Below are positions 1,474-43,793 of a DNA stretch of 63,014 nucleotides, piece after piece (positions within the stretch are counted from its first letter, which is position 1; the number at the start of each line of letters is the position of its first letter). The DNA lies in the NCBI GenBank assembly GCA_022821105.1, contig JAJEEH010000019.1, positions 1 through 63,014 on the forward strand, given 5' to 3'. Source of the DNA: Acidimicrobiia bacterium (GTDB lineage: Bacteria; Actinomycetota; Acidimicrobiia; Acidimicrobiales; Bin134). The notes below the pieces were generated by a model. The model had not been told where the DNA came from. It made no database searches and worked only from the letters and a program-made list of their open reading frames with translations. A program made the position numbers and the translations under genes.

Positions 1474-1958
1474 GCGGCCAAGCGGACGCCCTCGACGATG
1501 CTGGTGTAGCCGGTGCAGCGGCACAGGGTGCCGGCCAGAAATTCCCGGATCTCAGCATCGCTCGGCTCGTCGGCATCAGCAGGCCGCTGGGCCAGCCACG
1601 CCACCGTGGACATGATGATGCCCGGTGTGCAGAAGCCGCACTGAAAGCTCATGGCATCGGCGAACGCCTGCTGGACCGGCCCCAACACCGGGTTGCCCGG
1701 ATCGGACGCATCCACCAATCCCTCGATGGTGGTCACCTCGCATCCGTCGGCCTGCACCGCCAACATCAGGCACGACCGCACCGCAGCGCTGTCCACCAGC
1801 ACCGTGCAGGTGCCACACACACCGTGCTCACACCCCAGATGGGTGCCGGTCAGTCCGCATTGGCGGCGCACGAAATCGGCCAGAGTGGTGCGGGTCTCTG
1901 TCTCGGCGGTGTAGTCCACCCCGTTGGCCTGAAGCTGAACAGTTCGGGTGGGGCTCAT
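1449..1958 (-). CDS. (2Fe-2S)-binding small subunit of the xanthine dehydrogenase/CO dehydrogenase family (CoxS-like, orphan)
   Basis: Cys motifs [19 protein letters not shown] and CRCTGY. ATG at 1958 (the ORF track starts at TTG 1967). The 3' end overlaps the hyuB-like gene convergently by 25 nt. Confidence 0.85.
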
Positions 1959-1967
1959 CGACGCCAA

Positions 1968-2768
1968 TTACCAGCCGATGCTCTGGCCCGCGTTGGCCCG
2001 AAGGATCTGGCCGGTCACATAGCGGGAAGCGTCGGAAGCCAGAAACCAGATGAGATTGGCCTGGTCAGACGCCTCGCATACCTCACCCAGCGGGGATCGG
2101 TCCCGCATCAGCTTGAGGTAGCTGTCCATCTCGGCGGGATCCACCTGGCCCTCGGCGTCCCGCAAGTGACCGCCCACGAAGTTGGTCAGCGTGAATCCGG
2201 GGGCGATGGTGTTGACCCGCACACCGATAGGTCCAGCCTCCACCGCCAGCGACTGGGTGAGCATGGCCACCGCCGCCTTGGTGGCTGCGTATACCGAAAG
2301 GCCTCCCACCGGGGTATTGATGGCGGTGGCCGACACGTTGATGATCGAGCCTGACCCTTGAGGGCCCATGACCCTCATGGCCGCCTGACAGCCGAAGAAC
2401 ACTCCTTTGAAGTTGATGGCCAAAACCCGGTCGAGCTCGGCCTCGGTCACGTCCACAACATCGCCATAGCTGCCCACCCCGGCCACGTTGGCCATCACAT
2501 CCAGCCGGCCGAACTCCTCTGTCGCCGCAGCCACCAGCGCTCCCACCTGATCCGACTGGGTGGTGTCAGAGGCCAGGGCCAACGCCCGACCGCCATTTCG
2601 CAGGATGCTGTCCCGGGTGCGGTCTGCCCCGTCGCCGTCGATGTCGCCCAACACCACCGCAGCCCCGGCTGCGGCCAGTGTCTCGGCGGCAGCCTCGCCG
2701 ATCCCACTAGCCGCCCCGGTGACGCAAGCCACCCGCCCGCTCAGGTCGAACACGCCGAGCCCGTCCAT
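1968..2768 (-). CDS. SDR family oxidoreductase
   Basis: ORF 1968..2936 trimmed to the internal ATG at 2768 (MDGLGVFDLSGRVACVTGAASGIGEA, Rossmann TGxxxGIG). The upstream part of the ORF overlaps the PAC2 gene region. Confidence 0.8.
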   Translation of the reverse strand: MDGLGVFDLSGRVACVTGAASGIGEAAAETLAAAGAAVVLGDIDGDGADRTRDSILRNGGRALALASDTTQSDQVGALVAAATEEFGRLDVMANVAGVGSYGDVVDVTEAELDRVLAINFKGVFFGCQAAMRVMGPQGSGSIINVSATAINTPVGGLSVYAATKAAVAMLTQSLAVEAGPIGVRVNTIAPGFTLTNFVGGHLRDAEGQVDPAEMDSYLKLMRDRSPLGEVCEASDQANLIWFLASDASRYVTGQILRANAGQSIGW

Positions 2769-2903
2769 CAAACCAGTCTGGCCCACTGTTGTTCGGTTTG
2801 CCGTATCTGGCTTGCCCCACCGCCGCGCCGGTGCGAATTGGCATGCACAACCGGCCAGATCAATCGGCTTGCCATCCCGGCCTGAGAATGTGAGTCTTGG
2901 GCC

Positions 2904-3761
2904 ATGGCGGTGGAGCTGGAATGGCTGGTGGACCAACCCACCCAGTCCAACCCGGTAATGGTGGTGGCATTAGAGGGTCTATTCGACGCGGCCGACGCGG
3001 CCACCACCGCAGTGCGGCTGATGAAAGAGAGCGCCAACGGCGTCGAGCCGCTGGCCCGCATCGACCCCGAAGAGTTCTTCAACTTCCAGGATCGCCGCCC
3101 TGAGGTCCGGCTAGACGACAACGGCCGGAGGGTCATCGACTGGCCGCTCACCAAGGTGCATGCGGTGGAGCGATACGGCGCCAAGCATCCCCTGGTGGTG
3201 GTAGACGGCGTGGAACCCCACCTGCGGTGGCGGACCTTCGCCGACTACCTGGTGGAGGTGGCCACCGAGTGCCGGGCTGGCCTGGTAGTGACCTTGGGCG
3301 CCATGGTCGGCCTGGCCCCCCACACTCGGCCGCTGGGGGTGGTGGGCAGTTCCACCAACGCCGAGCTGGCCCGCATGTTCGGGTTGGGCCGCCCCACCTA
3401 TGAGGGCCCCACCGGACTGGTGGGCGCGCTCCACGACGCCTTGGACCAGGCCCAAATTCCGGTCATCTCCCTGCGGGTGTCAGTACCCCACTATGTGCCC
3501 GGACCGCCCAACCCCGAGGCAACCCGGTCGCTGCTCAAGCGGTTCGAGCTGATCACCGGCATCATCACCGACCACGACGAGCTCGACGAGGCTGCCGCGG
3601 CATGGCGAGAGCGGGTGGACACTGCGGTGGCCGGCGACGACGACCTAAAGAACTACGTCGCCCAACTCGAGCGCCAGATCGACGAGGCCGACGACCTCCT
3701 CCCCACCGGCGACGACCTCGCCACCCAATTCGAAGCCTTCCTGCGCGACCCCTGGAAGTAG
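2904..3761 (+). CDS. PAC2 (proteasome assembly chaperone 2-like) family protein
   Basis: 285 aa. The N-terminus VMVVALEGLFDAADAATTAV resembles the FeGWnDAG region of actinobacterial PAC2 proteins (from memory). Confidence 0.55.
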   Translation: MAVELEWLVDQPTQSNPVMVVALEGLFDAADAATTAVRLMKESANGVEPLARIDPEEFFNFQDRRPEVRLDDNGRRVIDWPLTKVHAVERYGAKHPLVVVDGVEPHLRWRTFADYLVEVATECRAGLVVTLGAMVGLAPHTRPLGVVGSSTNAELARMFGLGRPTYEGPTGLVGALHDALDQAQIPVISLRVSVPHYVPGPPNPEATRSLLKRFELITGIITDHDELDEAAAAWRERVDTAVAGDDDLKNYVAQLERQIDEADDLLPTGDDLATQFEAFLRDPWK

Positions 3762-3781
3762 GGGCGGCAGGGCCCTACCGC

Positions 3782-4270
3782 CTACGCCGCGGTCAGGCGG
3801 GCGAGGGCTTCGTCGATGATGGTGGTGGCCAGTTTTTGCAGGGACTCGTCGTCGAGGGTGGAGACGGGGTGGGGGACGGTGACCGCCGGGTAGGTGGCCA
3901 TGCCCACGGTGGGGGCGAAGGATTCGACCACCGGCTCAAACGGCTCGGTGATCAGCAGCATTGAGGGGATTCCCCGGGATTCCATGTGGACGGCGTCGTG
4001 CAGACTGCACGCCGTGCAGGCCCCTCAATCGCCCAAGCCGGAGATGATGAGGTGGGAGCGGACGGCCAGCATCTCGGCGTCGTCGGCATCGATGGGCTTG
4101 CCGGCCGCCGACTTGGAGTGGACCACGATGTCGGCCACCGGGAGGCGGTCGCGCAGGCCCTCGGCCACATAGGTGAGCAGCTCCTTGGCGTTGTTCTTGG
4201 CGTTGTCGATCACCCCGATGACCACCGGCTCGGTGGGGGTGCGCCGGGGCGCCATGGCCACCTCGGCCAC
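3782..4270 (-). CDS. Candidate selenoprotein (UGSC-like, UxxC/CxxC redox motif), with in-frame TGA at 4025..4027 read as Sec
   Basis: ORFs 4025..4624(-) and 3782..3985(-) share a frame and are separated only by the TGA. Read-through gives ...ISGLGD-U-GACTACSLHDAVHMESRGIP.... GTG at 4270 is preceded by AGGAAG 5 nt upstream (alternative ATG at 4255). Total 162 codons. Confidence 0.55.
3992..4013 (-). promoter_or_regulatory. SECIS-like hairpin 12-33 nt downstream of the in-frame UGA
   Basis: mRNA GGCGUGCAGUCUGCACGACGCC. The core stem GUGCA/UGCAC closes a GUC loop, and an outer GGCG/CGCC stem is possible. Position and sequence resemble the E. coli fdhF SECIS apical hairpin as I remember it. Confidence 0.45.
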
Positions 4271-4332
4271 TTGGGCTTCCTCATATACCGGAGACAGGAC
4301 AGTTACTGACGACACAGGGATTCCTCCGCGAA

Positions 4333-5397
4333 CTACTGGGCCAAGGGTAGTCCATCGCCGGGAGCAGCCACCTTGCGGGTGACGGCCTCCGAGTGCACAA
4401 CCGGGGCCCAGTTGGGGATGTAGGCCGACCAGCCGGCCCCAGGGCTGCCTGCGGTGACCAGGAAAATGTCCTCCGGGCCCCGCACCGTGTTGAGCTTGCC
4501 GTCGGCGTCGGGGGTCATGTCGTTTTGGGCGGTGAACTCCTGCAAGACGCCGCCCGCGTTCAGGTGCTCGGGGGTAACCCTGCTGTGCTCGGCCAAGAAC
4601 TCCCGCACCATCTGCTTGGTCCAACCGGCTTCGGCCAGGATCTGGCGGTGCTCGTGGCCGATCACCAGCAGTACCTGGTGTTTCTTGGCCACGGCGTAGG
4701 TGGCCGGGTTGGTCATGGCGGCGGCGAAGGTCAACAAGATCCCCTCGGGGTCGCCGTTGAGGTGGTTGGCCACCTGATGGGGGCTCTCAGAGGGGAACAT
4801 GGTCACCGTGGTGTCGGCCTCGCCATAGCCCAACTCCACCCGCAGCGGCGGCCAACCCTCGGGCGGGGGCTCCTCGGCCACCAGCATGGTGAACTTGCCG
4901 GGATGGCCCAGCGACGATCCGTCGAGGGTGTCCGACCGAGCCCCCAGCACGTTCATGGCCACCAGCCGTAGAGCCCGCCCCACGGTGGCGTTGGCCCGGT
5001 AGCCCGGCCCGAGCGCATTGCGAGCCGTGTTGAACCCCAGCTCGGCCACCAGAGGGCCGCTCACCACTGCGCACAGCGCGGCCCCTCCGGTGCTGGTCAC
5101 CACGGTGTGGCACCCGAACCGGGGGTCGAACATGGCCGACAACCCGGCCAGCACCACCGGGAAGTACTCGGCTCGGCACCCGGCCATCACCGCGTTTACG
5201 GCCGCCTTCTCCGCGGTGACCTCCCGGGACCGCTCGGGCACGTTGCCCACGATGTCGCCCGGGGCCAAACCGGCGTGGTCGAGCATGGCCTGGACCCGTT
5301 CCGACGTGGGCGGCACCACCGGCAGCCCGTCGGTCCAGCCTCGGTCGAAGAACTCTTCTTGCACATCCCCCGCGTCGAGCACCAACTCCTGAGCCAT
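4333..5397 (-). CDS. Conserved hypothetical protein (354 aa), immediately upstream of and co-oriented with the candidate selenoprotein
   Basis: Long ORF with strong GC3 bias. N-terminal motif FFDRGWTDGLPVVPPT. I do not recognise a named family. Confidence 0.7.
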   Translation of the reverse strand: MAQELVLDAGDVQEEFFDRGWTDGLPVVPPTSERVQAMLDHAGLAPGDIVGNVPERSREVTAEKAAVNAVMAGCRAEYFPVVLAGLSAMFDPRFGCHTVVTSTGGAALCAVVSGPLVAELGFNTARNALGPGYRANATVGRALRLVAMNVLGARSDTLDGSSLGHPGKFTMLVAEEPPPEGWPPLRVELGYGEADTTVTMFPSESPHQVANHLNGDPEGILLTFAAAMTNPATYAVAKKHQVLLVIGHEHRQILAEAGWTKQMVREFLAEHSRVTPEHLNAGGVLQEFTAQNDMTPDADGKLNTVRGPEDIFLVTAGSPGAGWSAYIPNWAPVVHSEAVTRKVAAPGDGLPLAQ

Positions 5398-9203: not shown

Positions 9204-10030
9204 GCTCTGACGGACTCGACCTGCGGATCGAAGACCTCACCGTGGTGTACGGGGGCGTCACTGCGCTGGACAGCGTGAACATCACCGTGCCCCCCGGCGG
9301 GTTCGTCACCGTCTTGGGGGCCAACGGAGCGGGCAAAACCACCCTGGTCCGGTCGATCACCAGCCTGCTCTATCTCCACAAGGGCCGAGTGCGCCGAGGG
9401 AGCATCACGCTGGGGGGCGAGTCGATTCTGGCCAAGAAGAGCCCCGACATCGTGAAGGCCGGCGTGGCCCAAGTACCCGAGGGCCGCAAGCTGTTCCCCA
9501 ACCTAACGGTGAAGGAGAACCTGCTGTGCGGGGCGGCCAGTCGCTCCGACGTCGACGCCATCGACGATTCCCTGGAACAGAACCTGGAGCTGTTCCCCCA
9601 GCTTCGGCCGCTTTTGAACCAGACCGCTGGCTTGCTTTCGGGCGGCGAGCAGCAGATGGTGGCGGTGGGACGGGCGCTGATGTCGGATCCAGCCCTTTTG
9701 ATTTGCGACGAGCTGTCGCTGGGCCTGGCCCCCAAAATCGTGCATCGCCTGTTCGAGTTGCTCACCGAGATCAACGAGAGGCGGGGCACGTCGATTCTGG
9801 TGATCGAGCAGAACGCCAGCTTGGCACTACAGCACGCCGCCGATGCTTACGTGCTCGAACTGGGCCGGGTGCTGATCGAGGGCACCGCAGATGAGCTCCG
9901 GGGCAATCCCATGGTGCAGGAGCTGTACCTGGGCGGCGGCGGTGAGGCCCACACCTCCTACGCCGCTATCGAGCGGCCCAGTCGCCGACCGGAAGCCCAT
10001 GGCCGACGACCACCGGTATCAGAGTCATGA
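9200..10030 (+). CDS. livF: ABC transporter ATP-binding protein (LivF-type)
   Basis: ATG at 9200 overlaps the livM stop. Walker A GANGAGKTT, signature LSGGEQQMVAVGRAL, Walker B LLICDELSLGLAP. Confidence 0.85.
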   Translation: MSSDGLDLRIEDLTVVYGGVTALDSVNITVPPGGFVTVLGANGAGKTTLVRSITSLLYLHKGRVRRGSITLGGESILAKKSPDIVKAGVAQVPEGRKLFPNLTVKENLLCGAASRSDVDAIDDSLEQNLELFPQLRPLLNQTAGLLSGGEQQMVAVGRALMSDPALLICDELSLGLAPKIVHRLFELLTEINERRGTSILVIEQNASLALQHAADAYVLELGRVLIEGTADELRGNPMVQELYLGGGGEAHTSYAAIERPSRRPEAHGRRPPVSES

Positions 10031-10067
10031 GGAATTCCGCCCCCGGCATCGACCAGGACGCAGGGTC

Positions 10068-10865
10068 ATGAGCGACGAGATTCTGAGCTTCGAAAACCTC
10101 ACCGTGCAGTTCGGTGGCGTGCGGGCCTGCGACGCCATCGACGGCCACGTCAAGCGAGGCTCCCTGTTCGCCCTGATCGGGCCCAACGGAGCGGGCAAGA
10201 CCACCCTGGTCAACGCCATCTCCGGCGTCTACAAACCGCTGCCCGGCGCCCAGGTGCAATTCCATCCCGCGGGCAAGCCAACTGAGGATCTGCTGTCCTA
10301 CCGCCCCTTCCAGATCGCCCGGCTGGGGGTGGCCCGGACGTTCCAGAACCTGGGACTGTTCATGGGCGAGAACGTGCTCACCAACCTGCTCCTCGGCCGC
10401 TACATCCACGAGCACACCCGGCTTATCGAGGGCGGCCTGTTCACCCGAAGGGCAGTAAAGCGGGAACTGGCCGCCCGCCAGGCCATCGAACGAGTGGTGG
10501 ATTTGCTGGACCTGGGAGCGTTCAAACGAGAGCCGGTAGGCGACTTGCCCTACGGCGTGCAGAAGAGGGTCGAGTTCGGCCGAGTGCTGGCCATGGAGCC
10601 TGAGCTCTTGATGCTGGACGAGCCCATGGCCGGCATGAGCGTGGACGAGAAGCAGGACATGATCCGCTACATCTACGCCGCCCAAGACGAGCTTGATATG
10701 ACGGTGTTCCTCATCGAGCACGACATGAGCGTGGTGATGTCGATCGCCGACCATGTGATGGTCTTGGACTTCGGCCAAAAGATCGCAGAGGGTACCCCCG
10801 CGGAGATGCAGCAGGACGAGCGGGTGATCGCCGCCTACCTCGGCACCGAGATGGCCGAGAACTGA
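10068..10865 (+). CDS. livG: ABC transporter ATP-binding protein (LivG-type)
   Basis: ORF 9891.. trimmed to ATG at 10068 (MSDEILSFENLTVQFGGVRA). Walker A GPNGAGKTT, LPYGVQKRVEFGRVL, Walker B LLMLDEPMAGM. Confidence 0.85.
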   Translation: MSDEILSFENLTVQFGGVRACDAIDGHVKRGSLFALIGPNGAGKTTLVNAISGVYKPLPGAQVQFHPAGKPTEDLLSYRPFQIARLGVARTFQNLGLFMGENVLTNLLLGRYIHEHTRLIEGGLFTRRAVKRELAARQAIERVVDLLDLGAFKREPVGDLPYGVQKRVEFGRVLAMEPELLMLDEPMAGMSVDEKQDMIRYIYAAQDELDMTVFLIEHDMSVVMSIADHVMVLDFGQKIAEGTPAEMQQDERVIAAYLGTEMAEN

Positions 10866-13657: not shown

Positions 13658-14656
13658 CTAGGAGACAAACTCAGCGGGCTGGGCCTCAAAGCGCTGTTGG
13701 CAGCCGGGAGCGCAGAAGTAATAGGTGATGCCGCCGTGGATGGAGCGGTAGCGGGCGTCGGTCACCAGCACGGTCATGCCGCACACCGGGTCAACGGCCC
13801 CTTCTGGACGATCTTGGGACGCGGCCTCAGAGTCGGCCGCGAGGTGGCCCTCGGCCCGACGAGCCACCAGGTCGGCCATGATGGCAGCCGCGATCTCCCG
13901 GTTGGGAATGCGACCCAAGTTCAAGCCAGCCGGAGAGCAAATCCGGGCCAGATCGCCGTCACCGAACCCCTGGGTGCGGAGGTAGTCGTTCATGGCCTCG
14001 GCCCGCTTGGCCGATTCCACCAGGCCGATATAGCCGGCATCGGTGCCCAAGGCAGCCGCCAGCGCTACGTCGTCGTAGTGCCCCTGGGTGGCCACCACCA
14101 CTGCGGTGGCCTGGTCCACGGTCAGGCTGCTCAAGTCCAAGCTGGTGCGCACGAGCTCCGGGCGCTCATGGTCGTCGGGCTGCCCGCCGTCGTCGACGAC
14201 CACCGCATCCCAGCCGATGGCGGTAGCCACCGCGGCGATGGCGTCCACCGCCGGAGATCGCCCAATCACCACCACTTGGGGGGCGGGCAGGCTCGGCTCC
14301 AGATAGATCTCCATCGCTCCCTCCGAATCACACGCCATGGCAATCGAGCGCAACCCGTCGCTGTGCTCGTCGCTTTGACCAGTTCCCGCGCTCCGGTGGT
14401 GGTCCCGTCCGTCCGATGGACCCAGACACAGCAGCCGGGGTTCGCCATGGTCCAGGCAGGCCAGCGCCTCCACGATCACGGTGGGCTCAGCGCACGCCCC
14501 GCCCAGCCAACCTCTCACCGAGCCGTCGGGCAGAATCACCGCTTGCGACCCTTGCTGGCCCGATGACGGCGCTCGCCGCCATATCACCGAGGCCATCACG
14601 AACGGCTGGCGCTGCTGGCGCAACTCCACGGCCCGTGCCATGACGTCGACGTTCAC
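13658..14656 (-). CDS. XdhC/CoxF-like molybdoenzyme maturation protein with a C-terminal YHS (TRASH-type metal-binding) domain
   Basis: N-terminal XdhC_CoxI-like region (PFVMASVIWRRAPSSGQQGSQAVILPDGSVRGWLGGACAE), a Rossmann-like middle (VVVIGRSPAVDAIA), and C-terminal DPVCGMTV...YYFCAPGCQQRF. GTG at 14656 has AAGGTG upstream (alternative ATG at 14641). It begins 17 nt after the coxL stop. Confidence 0.75.
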   Translation of the reverse strand: MNVDVMARAVELRQQRQPFVMASVIWRRAPSSGQQGSQAVILPDGSVRGWLGGACAEPTVIVEALACLDHGEPRLLCLGPSDGRDHHRSAGTGQSDEHSDGLRSIAMACDSEGAMEIYLEPSLPAPQVVVIGRSPAVDAIAAVATAIGWDAVVVDDGGQPDDHERPELVRTSLDLSSLTVDQATAVVVATQGHYDDVALAAALGTDAGYIGLVESAKRAEAMNDYLRTQGFGDGDLARICSPAGLNLGRIPNREIAAAIMADLVARRAEGHLAADSEAASQDRPEGAVDPVCGMTVLVTDARYRSIHGGITYYFCAPGCQQRFEAQPAEFVS

Positions 14657-14673
14657 AACACGAGCACCTTTGG

Positions 14674-17025
<2,352 letters not shown>

Positions 17026-30607: not shown

Positions 30608-31555
30608 ATGCGAGGCATGAGAATTGGGGCGATGGCCGCCGAGGGCACCGGCGACCCGCCGGTGCCGGGGATGAGCGGGCCTCCCGGACTGGATGAGATA
30701 ACCGAGAACGCTCAGCGGTTCGAGGCGCTGGGGCTGGACACGGCGTGGATCGCCAACATCGAGATCGACGCCGTCACCGCATCGGCGGTGGTGGGCACCG
30801 CCACGAGCCACATCGAGATCGCTACCGGGGTGACTCCCACCCCCATGCGCCACCCCTTCGCCCTGGCCCAGCAGGCCGCCACCGCCCAAGCGGCCTGCGA
30901 CGGGCGGTTCACCCTGGGCATCGGCCTGTGCCACCAGGGGATGGTGGAGAACCTGATGGGTCTGTCCTACGCCCGGCCGGCCCGCCAGATGAAGGAGTAC
31001 CTGGAGATCGCCGGCCCCATGCTGCGAGGCGAGGGCATGAACTACGAGGGCGAGATCTACACCACCCGCTGGCGGGGCCTGTCGCATGCCCCTCCCACCG
31101 AGATCATCGTGGCCGCCATGGGGCCGATCATGTTGGGCCACGCCGGGCGGCTGGCCAGCGGCACCTTCGTGTGGGCCACAGGGCCCAACACGCTGGCCGA
31201 CTACGTGGTTCCCACCATCAGCGCCGCGGCCACAGATGCCGGGCGTCCCCAGCCGAGGGTGGCGGCCGGATTCCCCATCTCGGTGGTCGACGACGCCAGC
31301 GCCGGCTATGAGGCCGCGGCCCGCACCTTCGCCCACTACAAGGACATCCCCTCCTATCGAGGCATGCTGGACCGAGAGGGAATGCCAGGCGTGGAGGACC
31401 TGGCCATAACCGGTGACGAGGCCGCGGTGACTGCGCAACTGGAGCGAGTTCGCGACGCCGGCGTCACAGACCTGGTGGCCTTCATCTACGACACCGACGA
31501 CCGATCCCGAGGCCGCACCGAAGCCCTGCTGGGAGAACTGGCCGGCTCAGGCTGA
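30608..31555 (+). CDS. LLM-class (luciferase-like, probably F420-dependent) oxidoreductase
   Basis: 315 aa. A typical LLM pattern (LGLDTAWIANIE..., RFTLGIGLCHQGMVEN). Confidence 0.75.
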   Translation: MRGMRIGAMAAEGTGDPPVPGMSGPPGLDEITENAQRFEALGLDTAWIANIEIDAVTASAVVGTATSHIEIATGVTPTPMRHPFALAQQAATAQAACDGRFTLGIGLCHQGMVENLMGLSYARPARQMKEYLEIAGPMLRGEGMNYEGEIYTTRWRGLSHAPPTEIIVAAMGPIMLGHAGRLASGTFVWATGPNTLADYVVPTISAAATDAGRPQPRVAAGFPISVVDDASAGYEAAARTFAHYKDIPSYRGMLDREGMPGVEDLAITGDEAAVTAQLERVRDAGVTDLVAFIYDTDDRSRGRTEALLGELAGSG

Positions 31556-42700: not shown

Positions 42701-43681
42701 CTACTGGGCCAAATGGGCCAGCGAGCCTGAGGGGCGGGCGCCGAACTGGCTGATGGTCGTGGTGGCAGCCAAAGAGCCCAGCCTTCCGCACTGGGCCAGG
42801 TCCATACCCCGAGTCCAGCCGTAGAGGAAGCCGGAGGCGTACAGGTCGCCCGCTCCTGTGGTGTCCACCACTTCAGCCGCCGGTGCGGCCGGCACCTCGA
42901 TGATCTCGGTGGGAGTGACCAACACCGATCCCCGCTCGCTCCGGGTCAGCGCGGCCACCTGGCACCGCCCCTGTACCGCGGCCACCGCGGCCTCGAAGTC
43001 GTCGCCGGTCTCATACAGCGTGCAGATCTCGTGCTCGTTGCCGAACAGCAGGTCGATGGGGCCGTCCACCAAGTCGAGCCACTCCTGGTGGTGGCGCTCC
43101 ACGCAGAAACTGTCCGACAGTGTGAACGAGATGGTGCCCCCGGCGGCCGAGCAGATCGAGATGGCCTTGCGGATGGCCTCCTTGGTGATGTCCACGTCCC
43201 AGATGTAGCCCTCGCAGTACAGCACCTGGGCTGCCCCCACCAGGTCGGGATCGATGTCGTCGGGGTGCAATTCGGTACTGGCCCCCAAGTAGGTGTTCAT
43301 GGTGCGGGCCGCGTCGGGAGTCACAATGATGAGGCACCGGGCGGTGGGCGGCCCGTCGGCGGCCGGAGCCACCTAGAAGCGCACCCCCAGCGCCCCGATG
43401 TCGTGGGCAAACACCTCGCCGAGCTGGTCGTCGCGCACCTTTCCTATGTAGCCCACCTGTCCGCCGAACGACGCCACCCCGGCCACCGTGTTGGCCGCCG
43501 ACCCTCCCGACGTCTCGATGGCCGGCGCCATGGCGCCGTACAACTCCTCAGCCCGCTCGGCGTCGATCAGCGTCATCGCCCCCTTCACCAGGCCATGAGC
43601 CTCGATGAACTCGTGATCTTCAGTGCTGATCACATCGACAATGGCGTTGCCGATCCCCACCACGTCTAACGCCCCACTCAT
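42701..43681 (-). pseudogene. PfkB-family (adenosine kinase-like) carbohydrate kinase interrupted by an in-frame TAG at 43373..43375
   Basis: ORFs 43373..43681 and 42701..43372 share one frame: ...GALGVRF-TAG-VAPAADGPPTARCLIIVTPDAARTMNTYLGA.... The two halves together form one PfkB kinase (N-terminal GIGNAIVDV, C-terminal DTTGAGDLYASGF). Confidence 0.65.
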
Positions 43682-43793
43682 AGCGAACCGAGGCTACCGA
43701 GCACCCCGGCAACAGAACCAAGACGGGCAATTCAACCCGTCTCGCCATGACATCTGCCCGTGAATCTAAGGTTGAATCGGTGAGGCCGAGCCT

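Follow-up and report, generated by a model that had tools for sequence, protein, structure and literature searches.

The minus strand of the 63,014-nucleotide stretch analysed here (contig JAJEEH010000019.1 of an Acidimicrobiia bacterium; hereafter the window) carries two open reading frames (ORFs), 4025..4624(-) and 3782..3985(-), which share one frame and between which the sole stop codon is the TGA at 4025..4027. An earlier note on this DNA had joined them into one gene for a candidate selenoprotein, i.e. a protein in which this UGA is read as selenocysteine (Sec). Our data make it highly probable that 3782..4315(-) forms one gene of the UGSC family and decodes its UGA as Sec, because the UGA is conserved, a hairpin behind it is constrained and the frame downstream of it is under purifying selection. 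Both ORFs do exist in the arrangement originally described, and translating 3782..4270(-) returns exactly the read-through peptide quoted at the time, interrupted by a single stop (...RSHLIISGLGD*GACTACSLHDAVHMESRGIPSMLLITEPFEP...). Around the Sec codon the minus strand reads GGC GAT TGA GGG GCC TGC ACG GCG TGC AGT CTG CAC, and with Sec at the TGA the joined frame becomes ...SGLGD-U-GACTACSLHDAV.... The coding signal that had been seen to continue across the stop is borne out by the G+C content at third codon positions (GC3), which amounts to 0.95 and 0.85 in the 40-codon stretches flanking the TGA. In a six-frame scan of the window, this was the only in-frame TGA with a convincing two-sided coding signal; two others, at 31547(-) and 48094(+), passed the same filter with far weaker values (GC3 0.78-0.80) and look like antisense artefacts. 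Scanning the window and the loci of relatives for in-frame TGAs yielded no credible further selenoprotein gene.

One detail of the earlier gene model has to be revised. It had placed the start at GTG 4270, giving 162 codons, whereas the real start is probably GTG 4315, which extends the gene to 177 codons including Sec. This is the more likely start because the N-termini of database homologues (M-SSVTVLSPVYEE) correspond to a position 15 codons upstream of GTG 4270, because P9 of this N-terminal stretch is invariant in 22 diverse members of the family, and because the Pfam UGSC model is covered more fully from 4315 (2-171 of 172) than from 4270 (15-171). A GGAGGA motif sits in the 17-nt gap between the TAG (4335..4333) of the upstream partner gene, which is described further below, and this start.

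How far the TGA is conserved was read from 57 loci of relatives, obtained by scanning one genome per species of GTDB. The closest loci belong to sponge-associated Acidimicrobiia labelled 'Candidatus Poriferisocius', with L001 being 99% identical. Near-identical loci also stand on closed chromosomes, examples being NZ_OZ241977.1, OZ242356.1 and OZ242341.1. TGA occupies the position of the Sec codon in 53 of the 57 loci, far more often than chance would allow, at protein identities from 99% down to 31%, and these include Euzebyaceae, Ilumatobacteraceae, a deltaproteobacterial metagenome-assembled genome (MAG) and, as L050, the cultured isolate Solirubrobacter soli DSM 22325. Three loci (L051, L052 and L055) have a cysteine codon, TGT or TGC, instead. 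In L057, a Solirubrobacteraceae MAG, the UGSC homologue (10001..10426) is frameshifted near the Sec region, either because this copy is decaying or through an error in assembly; in all other loci the downstream 80 residues are kept in frame. Pairwise ratios of nonsynonymous to synonymous substitution rates (dN/dS) after the TGA range from 0.03 to 0.44, comparable to those of the upstream half.

Protein databases reflect the same codon in a different way. Among 81 homologues found in a protein search, 75 are fragments of 94-127 amino acids, mostly 96, and all ten fragments that were aligned stop exactly at ...SGLGD; these fragments are gene-caller truncations at the same TGA. Four full-length homologues carry Cys at the TGA position (GLGD-C-GACSSCS) and one carries Trp, presumably owing to a gene call under genetic code 4. 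Moreover, the 13 codons that separate the TGA from ATG 3985 (GACTACSLHDAVH) encode a conserved peptide, with all differences within the Poriferisocius clade being synonymous (GGG/GGC/GGT/GGA, GCC/GCT/GCG, TGC/TGT and ACG/ACC), and the second ORF is therefore not an independent downstream gene. The earlier note had anticipated truncation by gene callers, and had asked whether Cys would align with the TGA, whether the downstream 80 residues would be conserved and whether the downstream ORF might instead stand alone; on each of these points the relatives speak for one continuous gene. An alternative genetic code in which TGA specifies Trp or Gly was ruled out, since TGA ends 15 of the 33 confident ORFs in the window.

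Directly behind the UGA, sequence comparison also detects a hairpin resembling a bacterial selenocysteine insertion sequence (SECIS), an element for which a search had been proposed in the earlier note. Beginning 13 nt past the UGA (whose U is counted as nucleotide 1), it consists in the window of a CGUGCA/UGCACG stem and an apical loop G23 U24 C25 (4005..4003), and a lower stem can lengthen it to about 3990..4015. The six core pairs (C17-G31, G18-C30, U19-A29, G20-C28, C21-G27 and A22-U26, with the loop being G23-U24-Y25 across relatives) all form in 39 of 39 distinct sequences. Two of them show compensatory change: pair 18-30 turns from G-C into A-U in L046, with a G-U intermediate in L050, and pair 21-27 turns from C-G into G-C in L056 and is U-G in six marine genomes. 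When alignment columns were shuffled, one of 500 shuffles matched the observed number of pairs changed on both sides and one of 500 matched the covariation score; slid registers gave at most one such pair, as opposed to the three observed, and a covariation of at most 0.062 versus 0.084. Most members have a 6-bp stem; among the Solirubrobacterales and deltaproteobacterial ones it reaches 8-9 bp. At the codon level, synonymous sites are nearly frozen at codons +5 to +9, with Ala GCG in 48/49, Cys TGC in 46/52, Ser AGT in 52/52, Leu YTG in 52/52 and His CAC in 50/52 sequences. No Ser codon is rarer in the window than AGT (codon +7; 3.3%), GCG (codon +5) accounts for 20% of its Ala codons, and the Cys-form genes use GCC and TCT/TCG at these Ala and Ser positions. 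The codon preceding the UGA is GAT in 48/52 sequences, even though GAC makes up 79% of the Asp codons in the window.

In the fdhF mRNA of E. coli, the minimal SECIS comprises nt 15-31 with G23 and U24 conserved in the apical loop, and SelB binds at G23 and at the bulged U17 (PMC8659212). The hairpin described here is similar in lying just 3' of the UGA within the coding sequence, in carrying G23 and U24 in its apical loop and in having its upper stem at about nt 15/17 to 31/33. It differs in its 3-nt loop and in lacking a bulged U17, and its structure is a prediction.

The protein itself, scanned against profiles with Cys in place of Sec, belongs to the family that the earlier note had named. 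It matches Pfam PF24696 ('UGSC family') nearly end to end, with 155.3 bits from start 4315 (residues 6-175 on profile 2-171 of 172; gathering score 25) and 149.6 bits from start 4270, and its top and by far best NCBIfam match is NF041046, 'UGSC family (seleno)protein', at 122.9-123.2 bits. Across the 22 diverse members L94, G95, D96, [U/C]97, G98 and C100 are invariant and C103 nearly so; in L056 the second Cys of the UxxCxxC motif is replaced by W. A 'UGSC-containing protein' was described in selenoproteome surveys of the Sargasso Sea and of metagenomes from Global Ocean Sampling (GOS) (PMC2398784, PMC13188914). With 255 Sec versus 21 Cys forms, UGSC was one of the selenoprotein families most abundant in GOS data (PMC2398784), and reviews of 2022 and 2026 continue to place it among the selenoproteins whose function is unknown (PMC9312934, PMC13188914). 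A GOS domain termed 'Unknown_1' is reported to occur in fusion with UGSC. The present protein resembles these in being a single domain of about 150-180 residues with U/C-G-x-C in the same column, and, as in the GOS data, Sec forms greatly exceed Cys forms among its relatives. It departs from them in its motif, which is U-G-A-C-T-A-C rather than U-G-S-C, in its host, a sponge-associated acidimicrobial clade ('Ca. Poriferisocius'), and in a predicted fold that is flavodoxin-like, whereas the literature assumes a thioredoxin-like one. It is an ordinary further member of an already known selenoprotein family.

Table 1. Features of the UGSC locus in the window
Feature	Position	Strand	Basis
UGSC-family selenoprotein gene, complete	3782..4315	-	translation, PF24696 match, homologue N-termini
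Start codon GTG	4315..4313	-	
Stop codon TAG	3784..3782	-	
Sec codon TGA (codon/residue 97)	4025..4027	-	TGA in 53/57 relatives, TGT/TGC in 3
Redox motif U97-G-A-C100-T-A-C103	within UGSC gene 3782..4315	-	translation
Core SECIS-like hairpin, nt +17..+31 (U of UGA = 1)	3997..4011	-	comparative pairing, codon constraint
Shine-Dalgarno-like GGAGGA, 6-nt spacer to GTG 4315	4322..4327	-	read directly
Partner gene, 354 aa, directly upstream and co-oriented	4333..5397	-	ORF; adjacency in relatives
Tryptic peptide expected across Sec, ...SHLIISGLGD-U-GACTACSLHDAVHMESR			

An AlphaFold2 (AF2) model of the 177-residue UGSC protein, with a mean predicted local distance difference test score (pLDDT) of 89.1, shows a single (beta-alpha)5 domain in which Sec97 is placed where strand 3 ends and helix 3 begins. 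Matches of this model to PDB structures, found with Foldseek at template modelling (TM) scores of 0.44-0.52, comprise azoreductase, NQO1, TIR, PTS-IIB, LMW-PTP, PurE and REC; there was no thioredoxin fold among the top 50. The fold is accordingly predicted to be flavodoxin-like and not thioredoxin-like, although the survey literature gives UGSC a 'likely Trx-like fold' (PMC2398784). In thioredoxin-fold oxidoreductases the redox motif lies at the N-terminus of helix 1, unlike in the (beta-alpha)5 domain predicted here. Below E = 0.01, a sequence search of the PDB with the UGSC protein hit only ArsA1, weakly and in its P-loop region (E about 0.001-0.003).

The UxxCxxC motif is documented for GrdB (PMC13188914). 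Among the 22 diverse UGSC members, ten weakly match TIGR01917 (GrdB), nine match GrdF and seven match a general selenoprotein-B model, and no other family recurs as often. The window protein aligns to TIGR01917 from Sec to its C-terminus (residues 95-175 on profile 344-421 of 431). The motif and this weak similarity of the Sec-to-C-terminus region are shared with the selenoprotein B group (GrdB, GrdF, GrdH and PrdB), which suggests that UGSC may be distantly related to the Sec-bearing module of selenoprotein B. On the other hand, the UGSC protein has about 177 residues compared with about 430 in GrdB, whose N-terminal 340 residues have no counterpart in it, and it occurs for the most part in aerobic Actinomycetota, not in anaerobes with Stickland fermentation. 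The cut-offs of TIGR01917 and TIGR01918 were missed by far (16.2 bits versus 602 and 14.6 versus 65), with just the last 80 or so residues being covered. As a member of the selenoprotein B family itself, UGSC fails on length, score and operon context.

Directly upstream of the UGSC gene lies the partner gene (table 1). A homologue of it adjoins the UGSC gene in all 57 loci, the three Cys-type ones included, as well as in the metagenome contigs L060 and L061, i.e. in 59 relatives in total. The partner lies upstream in 56 loci, one of which, the frameshifted L057, gives a partial match, and downstream only in the deltaproteobacterial L056. The partner-UGSC pair is an invariant module across Actinomycetota, Alphaproteobacteria and one deltaproteobacterium. 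In L060 and L061, the UGSC gene follows the partner and was gene-called as ORFs of 97 and 77 amino acids, both of which match PF24696. Invariant residues of the partner are W21-T-D-G-L-P26, C74, T101-S-T-G-G105 and G322-W-S324. Its family counts more than 6,600 database homologues, those with names being 'hypothetical protein', and no Pfam domain occurs among the matches listed. The partner had no Pfam or NCBIfam match, also when 26 members were scanned singly, and a sequence search found no relative in the PDB. Its AF2 model is confident (pLDDT 84.8, predicted TM score 0.88); among PDB structures, Foldseek paired it only weakly, at TM scores of at most 0.31, with the folds of class I fumarase and of the 'Toblerone' type of cyanuric acid hydrolase, and these matches are not taken as homology. 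This 'dark' family seems to merit a family model of its own.

Some partner proteins (P0316, P0320 and those of L060, at 1887..3790, and L061) have an extra C-terminal domain of about 90 residues with a CxxC motif (SQACADCVMP), which by eye looks NifU-like; the only match obtained for it was not significant (E = 0.22). L048 (CAMAWR010000001.1) is titled 'MAG: Bifidobacterium breve', and its partner-UGSC pair is nearest to those of Ilumatobacteraceae MAGs (cf. L046); the title is probably mislabelled or the bin contaminated. The other neighbours in the window, PAC2 and short-chain dehydrogenase-like ORFs, are not conserved outside the Poriferisocius clade, and in relatives CoA-transferases or a taurine dioxygenase homologue are found nearby.

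A gene of Sec metabolism does occur near the pair in some relatives. In tblastn searches of the 57 loci with E. coli SelA, SelB and SelD, only SelD was found, namely in five loci of marine Acidimicrobiales (L037, L038, L040, L041 and L043), the UGSC proteins of which are 63-66% identical; weak 'SelB' matches in relatives' loci proved to be TypA. The marine selD gene is located upstream of the partner-UGSC pair at a distance of 4-5 kb (5199..6230 in L037 and equivalent regions in the other four), encodes a selenoprotein itself (LTQFSHGAG-U-GCKL) and is cut to 316 amino acids in public protein sets. Folding predictions for four of the five loci include a GUC-loop hairpin about 37 nt past the UGA. 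A protein database search with this SelD returned marine relatives in all of the 120 matches listed. The presence of a Sec-type selD in marine relatives means that the Sec trait exists in the order Acidimicrobiales.

Several observations weigh against the interpretation of the locus developed here. The genes selA, selB and selD and tRNA-Sec were not found in the window or in the approximately 20-kb flanks of close relatives; tblastn with the three E. coli proteins gave no match in the window, and ARAGORN detected no tRNA in the window or in the loci of 12 relatives. The hairpin consists of just 6 bp closing a 3-nt loop, has no bulged U17 such as the E. coli element possesses and had no Rfam counterpart at the gathering threshold in a search of the window, and the 74-nt stretch alone folds no better than shuffled versions (z = -0.88). 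Much of the stem is dictated by the conserved peptide C-S-L-H, and its covariation comes from two lineages; because the peptide fixes part of the stem, independent evidence for the hairpin consists of the choice of codons and of these lineages with compensatory changes. The NF041046 score of 122.9 lies 2 bits below the curated equivalog cut-off of 125 bits, which the Cys homologues P0017 (130.3 bits) and P0028 (128.4 bits) exceed. As to function, the similarity to GrdB is weak (16 bits, E about 0.002-0.01), the neighbours in the window and in relatives include neither grd or prd genes (grdA/C/E, prdA) nor trx, and the partner model has no convincing PDB match (Foldseek, TM at most 0.31).

If the clade had lost its Sec machinery, the UGA might be read through by a near-cognate Trp or Cys tRNA or by some other recoding, yielding a full-length but selenium-free protein. 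That neither the window nor the flanking DNA of close relatives showed this machinery, and that selD lies near the UGSC gene only in more distant marine relatives, would fit such a scenario, which we nevertheless rate as very improbable: the constraints on AGT, GCG, YTG and CAC hold across the Poriferisocius clade and are hard to explain without SelB-dependent decoding, a Sec-less lineage would be expected to fix TGC or TGT, as L051, L052 and L055 did, and elsewhere in the window TGA is a normal stop.

Termination at the TGA, on the other hand, is what public gene callers annotate; it would leave a protein of 96 residues, followed by either an independent ORF of 67 residues, for which an ATG is indeed present at 3985, or nothing. 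The protein-level conservation of the 13 codons ahead of this ATG, with merely synonymous differences in the clade, makes this extremely improbable, as does the finding that Cys-form homologues are continuous single proteins and that one Pfam domain covers both halves; a stop at the TGA would also cut the predicted (beta-alpha)5 domain after strand 3. A pseudogene, or a sequencing or assembly error for TGC or TGT, would require a difference of a single base, and the relative L057 does look frameshifted. However, 53 genomes that different studies assembled independently, closed chromosomes and an isolate among them, share this TGA, and dN/dS is well under 1 on both sides of it, so that such an explanation is hardly credible.

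With Sec decoding as the preferred reading, the ribosome would pass the UGA at 4025..4027 without terminating, the hairpin at nt +17 to +31 would recruit SelB-GTP-Sec-tRNASec, and Sec would be inserted at residue 97. In the finished protein, Sec97 and Cys100 of the invariant UxxC motif would most likely alternate between the selenol/thiol and selenenylsulfide states. Judging from the adjacency of the two genes, the UGSC protein would most likely act as a redox or catalytic subunit for the 354-residue partner, and the pair may, speculatively, form a small reductase-type selenoenzyme with GrdB-type chemistry. Such functional statements are less certain than Sec decoding itself. The most far-reaching of them, i.e. 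that UGSC and its partner constitute an undescribed two-subunit selenoenzyme, with UGSC being a free-standing flavodoxin-like relative of the UxxCxxC module of GrdB and proline reductase, is a tentative idea that we consider rather unlikely. If true, selenium chemistry of the GrdB type would reach beyond Stickland-fermenting anaerobes into abundant aerobic Actinomycetota of marine, freshwater, soil and sponge-symbiotic habitats.

Recoding of UGA is textbook knowledge, and nothing in these data overturns current understanding. What changes is the annotation: in dozens of Acidimicrobiia genomes, public records show a hypothetical protein of 96 amino acids or two ORFs, and the shortfall of 2 bits under the NCBIfam cut-off could be the reason why the NCBI pipeline leaves the gene unrescued. 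The corrected gene model indicates that selenocysteine is most likely used by 'Ca. Poriferisocius', a clade of sponge symbionts. In addition, the obligate partner gene, the prediction of a non-thioredoxin fold and the GrdB-like motif provide handles on the function of UGSC.

Two further places in the window caught our attention. At 13658..about 14660(-), a gene identified by eye as an XdhC/CoxI-like accessory gene has a YHS-type end motif (YYFCAPGC) and adjoins 14674..17025(-), which, also by eye, resembles a gene for a molybdenum hydroxylase large subunit. Although YHS-domain proteins also figure among the listed selenoprotein families, the gene with this motif in the window has no in-frame TGA. 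A gene for a PfkB-family sugar/nucleoside kinase (42701..43693(-)) is broken by an in-frame TAG at 43373..43375 (...GALGVRF*VAPAADG...), which could reflect a pseudogene, a sequencing error or read-through; the two sides of the TAG have GC3 values of 0.90 and 0.88, and NCBIfam kinase models align across it (residues 57-318).

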